IMG/VR virus record: IMGVR_UViG_2687453522_000003
Location: 1 to 40,804 of that record
Reading direction: 5' to 3' (one strand)
Length of the DNA stretch: 40,804 bases
DNA from: a virus
Taxonomy: Duplodnaviria > Heunggongvirae > Uroviricota > Caudoviricetes
The first letter of the stretch is position 1. Each line of letters opens with the position of its first letter. A program made the position numbers and the translations under genes. The notes beneath the pieces are model-generated. The model had not been told where the DNA came from. It was given only the letters and a program-made list of their open reading frames with translations, and searched no databases. Shown here piece after piece: positions 4,730 through 39,436 of the stretch.

Positions 4730-5551
<822 letters not shown>

Positions 5552-5619
5552 GAAAAAAAGGAGCTATGTCCCCGGTCCGTTACTCACCTAATTTTTGAGT
5601 CTTTAAGTGATAAGCATAA

Positions 5620-10701: not shown

Positions 10702-11780
10702 CAGAACGGGTCCTCCTGTACTCTGGCTTTTTTCTTTTTCCGCGCGCCGGGGTCTTCGGGTTCAGGCAGATAAGCATCAGGCGGGCCGACACGGATTTCC
10801 GTCAGGGTGCCGTTCTGGTCCTGAGTAAACGTGACTTCCGAAACAAGCAGTTCGGTATTGTCGAAACCACAGACCGGATCAAAGACAATCACCCGCTGGT
10901 TGGGCTGCCACAGCATACCGTTACCCTGTCGCCAGCCCTGCACCACATAAGTGGTTTCATCCGTCCGCGCCGCCCGTTGCCGGGCTTCAAAGTCAGCACG
11001 CGCAATACAGCCAGCCCCCGTGGCCTGCCCTGTCTGCCTGATATACATCGGACGGTAACGGGCAATAAATGCGTCCTCTGTGCGGGCCCGCAGCGCGGTG
11101 GTGGTGGCCTCACCGAAATCATCGTCGTTTCCGGCACGCTGCCCCGCCACCTGGTAAACTGAAAACCGCTCCCGGATACTCTTCTCCGTATCGCAGGAAA
11201 GGATGTTTTCCCCAAGTACCAGCGCGGTATGTGCCCGCGTTGAGCCAATACCGCCAATCACCAGCCTGCCGTGCGGATCGTCGTAAGCCAGTACCTGCTG
11301 CTGACCGAGTATTTTGTTGATTACCTCAATCACCGTTTCACCGTGATCAGGCTGAACATCAGGAATAACACCCGACGGCGCACCGCTGTTCACCACCTCA
11401 ATGCCGAAAGGCACAGCAAGCGCCTGCGCAATCTGCACCAGCGAGCGTCCGTTAAACTGTGTCGGTTCGGCTGCACAGTCAATCAGGTCAGCGGTCAGAC
11501 TACGCCCGGCAATACCGGTGCTGACCGAACGGGCATCGTAACGAACGGGCGTCGCCTCCACCCAGCCGGTGATCACCAGCTCATCACCAATCAGCACTTC
11601 CACTTTTGAACCGTTTTTAATGCGCGGCTGAAGCGTGGTGATACCCTCATCTCCCGGCCACTGGCGGGTGATCTCCACACTGAAATCCCGCGCCAGCCGT
11701 TCAATACCGGCACCGATGCGCACCGATGTCCAGCCATTCCACTCCCGGCCATTTACCCGTAGCGTGACATTGTCGTTCAT
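10701..11780 (-). CDS. Tail protein, Mu gpP / P2 gpD-like
   Basis: 359 aa, downstream of the DNA-circulation protein, Lys-rich C-terminus. Confidence 0.65.
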   Translation of the reverse strand: MNDNVTLRVNGREWNGWTSVRIGAGIERLARDFSVEITRQWPGDEGITTLQPRIKNGSKVEVLIGDELVITGWVEATPVRYDARSVSTGIAGRSLTADLIDCAAEPTQFNGRSLVQIAQALAVPFGIEVVNSGAPSGVIPDVQPDHGETVIEVINKILGQQQVLAYDDPHGRLVIGGIGSTRAHTALVLGENILSCDTEKSIRERFSVYQVAGQRAGNDDDFGEATTTALRARTEDAFIARYRPMYIRQTGQATGAGCIARADFEARQRAARTDETTYVVQGWRQGNGMLWQPNQRVIVFDPVCGFDNTELLVSEVTFTQDQNGTLTEIRVGPPDAYLPEPEDPGARKKKKARVQEDPF

Positions 11781-33754: not shown

Positions 33755-34093
33755 CTATTTCCCTGAATTTACGACGAAACTGTTCGAGCGGGCTGAAGCA
33801 CTCATGCTCATAGCCTTCGCGGAGGTAGATAACTCGTTGTGTTTCCGGCTCCCAACGAATGACTCTGACGGGCACTCCGTAGTGATCTTTGAACCAGCGG
33901 TTAACTTGTCGCAAAGGACTGTCTCCTTCTGCCGGTTGAAATCACCCACAGCCCACTCAGCAAAGCTGTGGGTTACAATTTCCCTGTCACCTGGTACATT
34001 AACTGCATAGCAATACTCCACCTTCGCTTTTCCACCCGGTACAGGAAGCGCAATCAGTTGCGAGCGACGGTAGTGTGTTGTTAAACTGTTCAT
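33755..34093 (-). CDS. Hypothetical protein
   Basis: ORF whose start overlaps the upstream stop (ATGA) within the rightward-operon analogue; C-terminal half low complexity. Confidence 0.4.
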
Positions 34094-34698
34094 GCGTTAG
34101 TTTCTCCACAGTCACGACACGCCACGGCGCCCGGAGCTGCACACTCGCGGGCGTCATTACTTTCTGAAATGCAAAAGATTTTGTAGACCAGTGCTGCATG
34201 CTCCTGCAGCTTCGAAATTGAGAGATACAGCTCGTCGTTAATTGCTGTCTTCTCATGCGGTTCCACCACACCGTCTTCGATTGCCGAACGAATCTGTCTG
34301 GAATAACTGCCAATCTGTTCAATGACTTCCAGCAGGCGCTGGTTAATATCGGCGTTGTCCACATCCTCGACGTCAGGAAGAGACACAAAGACGCCATTTG
34401 CAGACTGCGCCACAGCGTCAGCAATGAAGTGAGTTCCACCAGCACGTTGCAAAATCATTGCCCATCCCAGCGGGAAAATCTGATCGCCATCGGCACGAAG
34501 GCGGTTAAATAATGCGTTTTCTGTTACATCCAGCCAGTCAGCTGCTTCAGCGTAACCACCCGGCAACGCTGCGATAGTTTTTCTGACAGCTTTCACGTAC
34601 CACTCAGGCTGTTTTTCTACTTTCCAGTGATGCTTACCCACGGTTAGCCTCATCGTTCTGTGGTTTCTGTTAATCGATTTATCCATTAGATTTTTCAT
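34090..34698 (-). CDS. CII-like / YdaT-type regulatory protein (by position)
   Basis: Immediately downstream of cro; start ambiguous (34698, 34686 or 34653); track ORF extends to 34755. Confidence 0.4.
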
Positions 34699-34879
34699 AA
34701 AGCTCAGGTTTAAATGGCAACCGTCCGCAAGTTCTATATGCAGCTTCTGCTGCACGTCCTTTTGGAATTAACTGGCCCGGACGGTTTCGCCACTGATAAA
34801 CGGCTTCAGTTGTTATGCCGAAAAAAGCAGCAACTTTCTCAATACTGCCGAAGTAGCTTTCGATATCGTCAGTTGTCAT
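34679..34879 (-). CDS. cro: Cro-like HTH repressor
   Basis: 66 aa, divergent from cI, HTH region FGITTEAVYQW. Confidence 0.75.
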   Translation of the reverse strand: MTTDDIESYFGSIEKVAAFFGITTEAVYQWRNRPGQLIPKGRAAEAAYRTCGRLPFKPELYEKSNG

Positions 34880-34891
34880 ACGCCCTCCAAA

Positions 34892-34954
34892 CTAAGTTTT
34901 ATTAGATGCTAATTACAAATCTATCTTTGGTCAATAAAAACTAAGATTACTTAG
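34892..34954. promoter_or_regulatory. OR-type operator region between cro and cI
   Basis: Two 14-bp sites CTAAGTTTTATTAG (34892..34905) and CTAAGATTACTTAG (34941..34954). Confidence 0.55.
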
Positions 34955-34976: not shown

Positions 34977-35603
34977 ATGGAAACGGTTGGTCAGCGTATA
35001 AAAGCTCTGAGAAGAGTTACCGGAACGTCCCAGAAAGAATTGGGTAAATTTTGTGGAGTAAGCGACGTTGCTGTGGGGTACTGGGAGAAAGACATCAATA
35101 CCCCTGGTGGGGAGGCACTTTCGAAATTAGCGAAGTTCTTCAATACGTCAATAGATTACATTCTTTATGGTGCTGAGTTTGAAGGCAAACTCGTCACAAA
35201 CATGCGCAGAGTTCCTGTAATATCGTGGGTTCAGGCTGGGCAGTTTACTGAGTGCAGGGCAGCAGAAGTGTTTAGTGAAGTGGACAAGTGGGTAGATACA
35301 TCATTAAAGATTGGTGATAACTCATTTGCATTAGAGGTTAAAGGTGACTCCATGACTAACCCTAATGGCCTCCCAACAATACCAGAAGGCGCAACAGTGA
35401 TTGTAGATCCAGATGCAGAACCTCGTCATGGAAAAATAGTCATCGCTCGACTTGATGGAACAAACGAAGCTACAGTAAAAAAATTAGTCATCGATGGCCC
35501 TCAAAAGTTTTTAGTGCCATTAAATCCTCGGTATCCCAACATCCCTATCAATGGTAATTGCCTTATCATTGGTGTAGTCAAAGGAGTTCAATACGAACTC
35601 TAA
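34977..35603 (+). CDS. cI: CI-type repressor (HTH plus S24 LexA-like peptidase domain)
   Basis: N-terminal HTH, Ala-Gly (QAGQ) cleavage site, GDSM serine and downstream KK. Confidence 0.85.
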   Translation: METVGQRIKALRRVTGTSQKELGKFCGVSDVAVGYWEKDINTPGGEALSKLAKFFNTSIDYILYGAEFEGKLVTNMRRVPVISWVQAGQFTECRAAEVFSEVDKWVDTSLKIGDNSFALEVKGDSMTNPNGLPTIPEGATVIVDPDAEPRHGKIVIARLDGTNEATVKKLVIDGPQKFLVPLNPRYPNIPINGNCLIIGVVKGVQYEL

Positions 35604-35620
35604 GACCTCTCTTCTCTAAC

Positions 35621-35682
35621 TAAGGCACCGAACTAAGAAAAGTTTGGTGTTTTCTCTTGCCATAATAACTAAGTTAAGTTAG
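35621..35682. promoter_or_regulatory. OL-type operator region downstream of cI
   Basis: CTAAGTTAAGTTAG (35669..35682) matches the OR sites; additional CTAAG repeats at 35621..35637. Confidence 0.45.
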
Positions 35683-35809
35683 ATTTTATATCAAAGATAA
35701 CGAACAGGCAGGACGCCCACGAAGTAGCCGCCTGGGGCATATGAAGTCCAGGATGATTCGTTGAGTCATGTTGTGCCACCAGGCACTCATGTTAAAGCAG
35801 GTGTATGAA

Positions 35810-36085
35810 ATGAAAGTCCAGATTTTAAACAATAACTGTGAAGTCGTTTGGTCATACGACATAGCCGCCCCTGTAGATCAGAGCGGCGATAGCTGGACCA
35901 ATGGGAAACATCAGATTATGGCTGGAGTTGTGTTCTCTTTACGCCGTGCTTTGGAACAGGCTGAAGTATTTCCATCAGACCCTGAATGGAAATGGCCTTT
36001 TTCTATTTGTCCAAATTCGGAGAGCACATTTCAGAAAATTGGTCAGAAAGTCGCACTCGAAGAGCATCAGCCAACTGTTTCCTGA
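35810..36085 (+). CDS. Hypothetical protein, first gene of the leftward-operon analogue
   Basis: AGGTG 6 nt upstream of the ATG at 35810; track ORF begins at 35768. Confidence 0.5.
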   Translation: MKVQILNNNCEVVWSYDIAAPVDQSGDSWTNGKHQIMAGVVFSLRRALEQAEVFPSDPEWKWPFSICPNSESTFQKIGQKVALEEHQPTVS

Positions 36086-36248
36086 TTTTTTCAGGTAACT
36101 CGTCGGCATCGCAGAAACAACAACGCTCGATCATGTTGAAAGCCGATTCGTAGAACTGTTTCTGCTGAGTGTCGCTGAGACAGGAAAAGAGCGACGTTAC
36201 GATGATTTTATTAATTGCATTATCAAGTTCTTTTTCATCAAAAGTCAT
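36003..36248 (-). CDS. Hypothetical protein, convergent with and overlapping 35810..36085
   Basis: AAGGAAAA ribosome-binding site upstream of the ATG; 81 aa, acidic. Confidence 0.5.
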   Translation of the reverse strand: MTFDEKELDNAINKIIVTSLFSCLSDTQQKQFYESAFNMIERCCFCDADELPEKIRKQLADALRVRLSDQFSEMCSPNLDK

Positions 36249-36502
36249 TTGATTTTCCTTTTATGTATACGCGCTTAAAAGGATACCACCGAGCCTGAAG
36301 TGGTGAAAAGACAGGCACATAACAGCTAAGTATTTTCAACCAGAGAGAATTCTTAGCGTTGTGGTGAATGCGGCTCAGCGCACGCGGGTTAAGGTTGAGG
36401 CTGACAGTCGACCTTCTGTGGATACCCACCCGCCTGGTGTGCAACCTTCGCCAGGCACCGGGAGGCACCCGGCACCACAACTTTATGCTGTGTGTAGTCT
36501 TG

Positions 36503-36548
36503 GCGGTACCAGCTTGTACCCTTGCTTCCGGCTGGTACCGTCCTTTTT
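36503..36548 (+). terminator. Intrinsic terminator within the leftward-operon analogue
   Basis: GGCGGTACCAGC ... GCTGGTACCG stem followed by TCCTTTTTAC. Confidence 0.55.
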
Positions 36549-36761
36549 ACAAAACAGAGAAGAGCATCACCGGACGACGGGCTCATAACCCAATCCATCC
36601 GGGCGGCTGCCACCGCAGGTGTTCTTCTATGTTTTGTGGAGAAACTAACCGCCCCTACGGGGGCATTTATGGAAATGTAATTGACTCAATAATCGCCGGA
36701 TGGTGAGGGATTCTTTTTACCAGAATTCAGCGCGGTGCAGCGCATATACGTGGAGAACAAA

Positions 36762-39360: not shown

Positions 39361-39436
39361 TGGTGCCGATAATAGGAGTCGAACCTACGACCTTCGCATT
39401 ACGAATGCGCTGCTCTACCAACTGAGCTATATCGGC
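39361..39436 (-). tRNA. thrW: tRNA-Thr (anticodon CGU), thrW-type; prophage attachment site at its 3' end
   Basis: Reverse complement reads GCCGATATAGCTCAGTTGGTAGAGCAGCGCATTCGTAATGCGAAGGTCGTAGGTTCGACTCCTATTATCGGCACCA. Confidence 0.9.

Follow-up and report, generated by a model that had tools for sequence, protein, structure and literature searches.

Two small convergent genes with overlapping coding ends behind the pL promoter of an SfV/e14-like prophage: a probable alternative cassette of the lambdoid sieB slot

The window analyzed here (the whole stretch of 40,804 nucleotides) corresponds to a lambdoid prophage resembling SfV and e14; relative to the lambda map it is shown reversed. It contains, in this order, a CII-like gene, cro, a cI-type repressor gene, the overlapping gene pair that is the subject of this work, a GC-rich structured stretch, yfdR, a DUF551 gene and yfdT. 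According to the identical record of E. coli CRE1493, an excisionase-like HTH gene and then int lie beyond yfdT. The region 35699-36654 is 100% identical to the prophage of E. coli CRE1493 and 98.6% identical to phage SfV, and about 400 of the 5426 complete E. coli genomes carry the cassette with the pair. The features discussed below are the following.

34090-34755, minus strand: CII-like gene
34679-34879, minus strand: cro
34977..35603, plus strand: cI-type repressor gene with HTH_3 and Peptidase_S24 domains (Pfam PF01381, 1e-10; PF00717, 9e-28)
35657..35685, plus strand: predicted pL-like sigma-70 promoter, TTGCCA-17-TAGATT, from a promoter scan
35668-35682, plus strand: operator copy ACTAAGTTAAGTTAG, within the spacer of the pL-like promoter
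35701..35762, plus strand: conserved leader element of about 60 nt, between pL and the plus ORF; left flank of the swappable cassette
35810..36085, plus strand: plus ORF of 91 aa (PHROG 3195; SfV orf33; PGAP WP_021563905), the first gene of the early-left operon
36003..36085, both strands: dual-coding region of 83 bp with both C-termini, read directly from the sequence
36003..36248, minus strand: minus ORF of 81 aa (PHROG 3311; PGAP WP_000141753), antisense to the pL operon, in the sieB slot
36249..36284, minus strand: leader hairpin SL2 of the minus gene, from an MFE fold
36285..36319, minus strand: sieB/sas-type block GTGCCTGTCTTTTCACCACTTCAGGCTCGGTGGT; right flank of the cassette
39364-39436: tRNA, tRNA-Thr in the annotation of the CRE1493 record

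The identical E. coli and SfV records name the product of 34977..35603 LexA family protein or cI. Three copies of the motif ACTAAG-N5-TTAG are present in the 40.8 kb, compared with 0.05 expected; two copies are in the cI-cro intergenic region and one is at 35668-35682. Since this last copy lies in the spacer of a promoter just upstream of the plus ORF, we identify 35657-35685 as pL/oL and the plus ORF as the first gene that it drives. The cI-type repressor controls the promoter of the plus ORF. Operator motif sites with the core CTAAG-N4-CTTAG are distributed in 34889-34954 and 35617-35682, and two more half-site-like copies, TAACTAAG at 35617 and AACTAAG at 35631, are located around the cI terminator.

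Downstream of this promoter, the element at 35701-35762 was found with 85-100% identity in more than 1000 E. coli genomes and in 49 temperate-phage records, including SfV, SfII, SfIV, ST64B, mEp460, mEp237, SPN3UB, phiNP, YeP1-3, Pantoea AH07 and others. None of the records that carry it has an annotation for it. The element could be a leader RNA or a terminator of the minus strand (35720-35704). An HK022-type put RNA was considered both for the pL leader and for the GC-rich region and was rejected, because neither resembles the early region of HK022. In the Yersinia prophages L176 and L185, the element of about 60 nt flanks the module on its opposite side.

On the right of the pair, the plus strand at 36328-36551 contains an element similar to prophage sRNAs of the STnc100/PasD family, within a structured region that extends to about 36720. 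The element scores 44.1 bits against Rfam RF02076 (gathering 47; E 5.5e-8) with the full model covered, has a fold z-score of -5.3 and ends in a strong hairpin followed by a U tract. PGAP labels 36361-36680 as a 'frameshifted hypothetical protein' and the counterpart sequence in e14 of K-12 is labelled ymfH; both calls are probably misreadings of an RNA gene.

A first-pass annotation of this stretch had described a convergent, 3'-overlapping gene pair with credible ribosome-binding sites, and both the layout and the coordinates proved correct, with 91 aa for the plus ORF, 81 aa for the minus ORF and an overlap of 83 bp. The plus frame is open from 35768, the ATG at 35810 (MKVQIL...) is the start kept in every lineage, and the stop is at 36083-36085. 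Shine-Dalgarno-like (SD-like) sequences stand at normal spacing before both starts (AGGTG 6 nt before the plus ATG, AAGGA 7 nt before the minus ATG), and GAGG or AAGGA is conserved at unchanged distance in all diverged lineages. Only the E. coli/SfV type has the overlap of 83 bp; the other lineages have no such stop in the plus frame, which extends to 93, 122 or 146 codons.

The right flank of the pair connects it with sieB. The 35 nt at 36285-36319 are 94% identical to lambda 34394-34428 and to P22 11401-11435, located upstream of sieB. This block is present in 149 phage records and lies ahead of sieB wherever the annotation was inspected. About 70 nt upstream of the minus ATG are conserved in all lineages, with the homology ending abruptly at GTGCCTG. 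A 2026 paper places the P22 antisense RNA sas at 11,387-11,513 on the leftward strand, the sieB start codon falling under the 5' end of the RNA (PMC13397905); by comparison with that published sequence, the block is the 3' part of sas. Two papers that cite Ranade & Poteete 1993 describe sas as the antisense RNA that switches sieB translation (PMC12197685, PMC7067206). The minus ORF, with this block ahead of it, converges on a plus ORF placed behind pL, which is the layout of the sieB slot in lambda, P22, Rac and e14. On these data, the minus ORF occupies the sieB slot and carries the sieB/sas control sequence. The cassette is bounded on the left by the conserved pL leader and on the right by the 35-nt sieB/sas block.

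The same block heads other genes. In SfII (L192, 1501-1943) it precedes SfII_36 (63 aa), whose partner is an unannotated 68-aa ORF, and the first 71 nt of the plus ORF are kept there as a remnant. In Salmonella phage 118970_sal3 (L193, 1501-1932) it precedes gp050, with gp051 as the partner. The e14 copy is found together with ymfI/ymfJ at 4919-5585 of the E. coli K-12 locus L182. The convergent partner of each of ymfI, SfII_36 and gp050 is a small ORF that runs in the pL direction, with 3' ends overlapping by 38-63 nt. Since gp050 as annotated takes in the block, its start has probably been set too far upstream.

In the RNA leader, the block may form two stems, GCCUG (36316-12) with CAGGC (36297-93) and ACCAC (36304-00) with GUGGU (36289-85). 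In the adjacent hairpin SL2, UAAAAGGA (36263-36256), with the SD sequence AAGGA (36260-36256) in it, is the pairing partner of the 5' arm UCCUUUUA (36283-36276). GCCUG and CAGGC are paired in 100% of alignment cells, and two of their pairs have changed at both bases; the second stem has one such pair, and the SL2 pair next to UCCUU/AAGGA is U-A, C-G or G-C depending on the lineage. Equivalent stems covering the SD, made of other sequences, were found in Yersinia, SfII, e14, sal3 and the metagenomic locus L194. The L194 leader keeps the ACCAC/GUGGU hairpin and the SD-covering hairpin, and the GCCUG/CAGGC stem is absent from it. Such covariation, coming from about five independent lineages, is suggestive of real stems; the leader folds are not more stable than shuffled sequence (z -0.8). 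The two stems of the block interleave and could form a pseudoknot. As to the strand that uses them, G-U pairs favour the minus-strand RNA and loop geometry favours the plus-strand RNA. A promoter scan upstream of the minus ORF found no sigma-70 promoter scoring at least 9/12, and the locus is absent from the transcription start data of Shigella M90T. An extended -10 candidate, TTCACC-16-TGgTATCCT, was downgraded: its GGTATCC is not kept in lambda, P22 and e14, and the same bases make up the anti-SD arm of the covarying hairpin.

We consider that the pair is probably, with a probability of about 0.65, an allelic cassette of the lambdoid arrangement in which a pL-proximal gene converges on sieB, the equivalence being one of architecture and regulation and not of biochemical function. 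The first-pass annotation had placed the pair where lambda carries N/rex-type functions. The first half of this assignment holds, the slot being that of N converging on sieB, downstream of pL; the second does not, as rex belongs to the cI operon and is located upstream of pL. The same annotation had suggested an antisense-regulated pair, a suggestion that gains indirect support from the 35-nt homology to the sieB upstream/sas sequence and from the listing of ymfI-ymfJ of e14 as an excludon.

Homology searches, which had been proposed as a check, returned relatives of both proteins and showed both ORFs to be conserved. For the plus protein they gave diverged relatives at 50-68% identity, and homologues at 46-68% identity lie at the equivalent position in other prophages; a profile search recovered relatives of the minus protein (56-64% identity) in Salmonella, Klebsiella and Yersinia. 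The 176 fetched sequences, which comprise the window, 12 targeted loci and two overlapping sets of 80 IMG/VR loci and are not all independent, contain 47 distinct module sequences. The distance from the plus ATG to the minus ATG is exactly 439 nt, indel-free, in 46 of these 47, the exception being a module of 412 nt (L098). The length of 439 nt is kept across six deep lineages, from Escherichia/Shigella, Salmonella, Klebsiella, Yersinia and metagenomes, whose pairwise nucleotide identity is only 56-75%. In every full module copy examined, among the 176 sequences and the six deep lineages, both ORFs are intact, convergent and overlapping. In strain CV261 (L005, 1246-2459) an IS3 element is inserted in the plus ORF and the minus ORF is intact, and frameshifted copies of either gene occur in some assemblies. 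The pair is inherited as one rigid, indel-free unit of 439 nt.

The surroundings of this unit vary. In other lineages the pair follows a repressor gene after a gap of 150-310 nt, and these repressors are unrelated. In two Salmonella loci (L011, 2552-3706; L012, 375-1529) a 384-aa gene with an HSDR_N domain lies between the repressor and the pair, co-directional with the repressor; given its restriction-endonuclease-like domain and rexAB-like position, this is likely a defence gene. In E. coli 50EVAW (L004, 2589-3076) a gene with a ClpX C4-type zinc finger is inserted 8 nt upstream of the plus ORF, and what precedes it is another repressor and a gene with a BRCT domain. A remote pair on the metagenome contig ERZ27235548 k119_9401 (L194, 3001-3439), with about 50% amino acid identity in both proteins, also measures exactly 439 nt and adjoins lysis genes and a Fic/Phd pair, with no immunity region.

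Linkage of the two genes could simply follow from their physical overlap. They might have unrelated functions, one being an early gene and the other a prophage moron, and be held together only by the 3' overlap and by recombination at the conserved flanks. It is at exactly these flanks that cassettes have been swapped in e14 and SfII, the partners of the other cargoes headed by the block are unrelated small genes, and one remote minus homologue (P0066, on L196) stands without an intact partner. Physical linkage of unrelated genes is a serious rival. Nevertheless, the pair stays indel-free down to 56% nucleotide identity, and does so even in the different context of L194, next to lysis genes. 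Such persistence exceeds what flank-driven linkage would predict, although an interaction between the products is not proven by it, and on balance we regard the reading as unrelated neighbours as the less likely one.

Both products are acidic and hydrophilic (pI 4.95 for the plus protein and 4.56 for the minus protein; maximum Kyte-Doolittle value 0.8-0.9) and have no transmembrane segment. Neither protein had a match in Pfam, NCBIfam or PADLOC, nor in a sequence search of the PDB, and PHROG 3195 and PHROG 3311 are families without assigned function. Searching 1.84 billion representatives with a profile recovered 21 proteins, each of them small and unannotated. Scanning GTDB genome contigs with the profile of the minus ORF gave no confirmed match, and a literature search by the accession numbers and PHROG ids of both proteins retrieved no papers. 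The minus protein is predicted to fold as a three-helix bundle (AlphaFold pLDDT 78), whose model had no match at E<1 in Foldseek searches of PDB and BFVD; the model of the plus protein (pLDDT 46) is too poor for a structure search. A metal site at the CCxC of the minus protein is unlikely, since this motif is not kept in remote members.

The minus protein is unrelated to SieB. BLASTP against lambda SieB gave no alignment (E=31), and hhalign of its profile against P22 SieB gave a probability of 0.1%. Its maximum 19-aa Kyte-Doolittle value is 0.80, compared with 3.01 for P22 SieB and 1.73 for lambda SieB, so that neither sequence similarity nor the character of a hydrophobic membrane protein of about 160-190 aa was found. 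The plus protein does not look like an antiterminator of the lambda N type either: it has no Arg-rich motif, with no Arg in its first 25 residues, its pI is 4.95 and it has no Pfam match. The leader at 35686-35809 contains no boxA-like GCTCTT.

These properties also bear on the idea, raised in the first-pass annotation, of a toxin-antitoxin module, in which one product would be toxic and would be neutralised by the other product or by the antisense transcript, stabilising the prophage. Tight co-inheritance, antisense overlap and the small size of both products would fit an addiction module, and a leader that sequesters the SD recalls type I toxin mRNAs. The products, however, match no toxin or antitoxin family and have no match in PADLOC; the genes are convergent and do not form an operon as in type II systems; and neither product is a short hydrophobic peptide as in type I systems, their maximum Kyte-Doolittle values being 0.8-0.9. 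Moreover, strain CV261 tolerates a plus ORF broken by IS3 next to an intact minus ORF, and frameshifted copies of either gene occur, which argues against strong toxicity of one gene in the absence of the other. We therefore consider an addiction module improbable and did not retain the idea.

The records disagree on which strand is coding. SfV and PGAP annotate the plus ORF alone when it is intact, phage SKA5 has the minus ORF alone, and PGAP turns to the minus ORF where IS3 breaks the plus ORF, as in CV261. An antisense ORF of 81 aa taken alone is weak evidence for a gene. We compared codon positions among nine sequences and computed pN/pS for each region of the module. In the part occupied by the plus ORF alone (module 1-193), variable sites at plus codon positions 1, 2 and 3 were 42/65, 30/64 and 55/64 (chi2 p=1.9e-5), with a pN/pS of 0.33 in the plus frame. 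In the part that in the window belongs to the minus ORF alone (module 277-439), they were 38/55, 27/54 and 50/54 at minus codon positions 1, 2 and 3 (p=7.3e-6), and pN/pS was 0.24-0.34 in the minus frame but 1.6-1.8 in the plus frame. In the overlap (module 194-276), codon periodicity is absent in either frame (p=0.36) and pN/pS is 0.94 for the plus and 0.65 for the minus frame; the overlap peptides VALEE (plus) and SEALRERL (minus) are both kept across lineages. Both ORFs are thus protein-coding, as the signature of purifying selection in both frames shows. The extension of the plus frame past the stop of the window evolves as non-coding in that frame (pN/pS 1.6-1.8), and the plus ORF forms of 122 aa, and one of 146 aa, reported in many assemblies are likely artefacts, produced by read-through of a frame kept open antisense to the minus gene.

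It follows that the alternative left by the first-pass annotation, that only one of the two ORFs is real, should be rejected, whichever strand is chosen. That the minus ORF is a chance antisense frame kept open by conservation of the plus strand, as the SfV and PGAP annotations and the 122-aa plus ORF reported alone by gene callers in most diverged loci might suggest, is scarcely credible when two thirds of it (36086-36248) lie outside the plus ORF of the window and vary there mainly at minus third positions (50/54 vs 27/54 at second positions, p=7.3e-6), with the pN/pS contrast between frames given above, and when its protein, which forms its own PHROG family, aligns at 57-63% identity with conservative changes and a conserved SD and ATG. 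The converse, that the plus ORF is an untranslated pL leader open by chance, has on its side the SKA5 and CV261 annotations and the poor AlphaFold model (pLDDT 46), and is equally hard to sustain against 55/64 variable third positions vs 30/64 second positions in its own part (p=1.9e-5, pN/pS 0.33), an MKVQI start and SD conserved in all lineages, 35 invariant columns at 58-64% identity within PHROG 3195, and the variant with a zinc-finger gene 8 nt upstream in operon style. The annotation conflict is resolved in favour of both genes.

Taking the pair as an allelic cassette of the sieB slot, we propose the following regulation. In the lysogen, pL would be shut and the minus gene transcribed from its sieB-type upstream region; the leader hairpin of its mRNA would cover the SD and keep translation low, and the transcript would extend antisense through the plus ORF. 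Upon infection or induction, pL would fire and the plus ORF would give the first protein made. Transcription from pL would then cross the minus gene and its leader, generating an RNA complementary to the minus ribosome-binding site, similar to sas. This antisense RNA, together with polymerase collision, would shut off the minus protein, so that the states in which the plus gene and the minus gene are expressed would exclude each other, as in an excludon. With low confidence, we suggest that the minus protein may be an exclusion or abortive-infection factor expressed by the prophage, and that the plus protein may neutralise it, by analogy with SieB and Esc. An exclusion module is plausible from the position and regulation of the pair, which are the basis of this reading.

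The significance of the locus goes beyond this pair. The sieB/sas control region, classically known from sieB, is not restricted to that gene: at least five small unrelated genes follow it, among them the uncharacterised ymfI/ymfJ of K-12. The head of pL is thus a swappable slot for prophage-expressed genes under putative antisense control. We regard this sieB/sas leader serving many unrelated cargo pairs as the most interesting lead of this work. A far-reaching version, which we hold only tentatively and consider rather doubtful, is that the leader is a portable control cassette heading a series of unrelated two-gene modules where the early-left operon of enterobacterial temperate phages begins (sieB/esc, ymfI/ymfJ, SfII_36 and its partner, sal3 gp050 and its partner, and the pair described here). 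Each of them would combine a prophage effector with an immediate-early gene providing a silencing RNA and a neutralising protein; the 81-aa and 91-aa products would be an exclusion effector and its escape protein, with the overlap locking the two genes together. If the cargoes are indeed exclusion or defence factors with early antidotes, the slot would be a simple place to search for systems of phage-phage competition. Being present in so many of the complete E. coli genomes, the cassette is easy to test.

Compared with known systems, the locus is closest in plan to those of lambda and P22. In all three, the repressor and pL are followed by a small early gene and then by a convergent gene on the opposite strand that meets it at the 3' end, as in 24 and sieB of P22; the 35-nt sequence before the convergent gene is 94% identical and corresponds in P22 to the 3' part of sas; and transcription in the pL direction yields, or in the pair described here would yield, RNA complementary to the ribosome-binding site of the convergent gene. 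The proteins differ. SieB has 184-192 aa and is hydrophobic, whereas the minus protein has 81 aa, is acidic and soluble and shows no similarity to it, and the plus protein is neither N nor 24, lacking an Arg-rich motif and a Pfam match. N and sieB of lambda abut, whereas the genes described here have a true coding overlap (83 nt, and more in other lineages). The leader is also shorter, about 70 nt compared with about 110 nt in lambda and P22, and no internal start of the Esc type is evident.

In e14 of K-12 the resemblance lies in the flanks: the pL leader is 86% identical, and the sieB/sas block with the downstream sRNA-like region is 90% identical. Between these shared flanks lies another convergent, 3'-overlapping pair of small genes, ymfJ and ymfI, with an overlap of 63 nt and products of 102 and 113 aa. 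YmfJ and YmfI were considered as homologues of the plus and minus proteins and discarded, the sequences being unrelated. Both the RNA and the protein of ymfJ rise late in the SOS response (PMC11002266). The Rac prophage has a similar arrangement, with ydaG-ydaF converging on sieB and 3' ends that overlap, ydaF and sieB sharing 4 nt. From RNA-seq, ymfI-ymfJ and sieB-ydaF were reported as convergent excludons of MG1655 (PMC12288877). Bacterial convergent excludons are characterised by mutually exclusive expression from overlapping 3' ends (PMC12288877). Most of them overlap in untranslated regions, whereas in the pair described here the overlap codes on both strands and is kept without indels; a coding overlap ensures overlap of the transcripts if both genes are transcribed. 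The pair is best read as a new allele of the lambdoid arrangement of a pL gene converging on sieB and not as a new kind of system, and what is unusual in it is a true dual-coding overlap together with the absence of indels over deep divergence.
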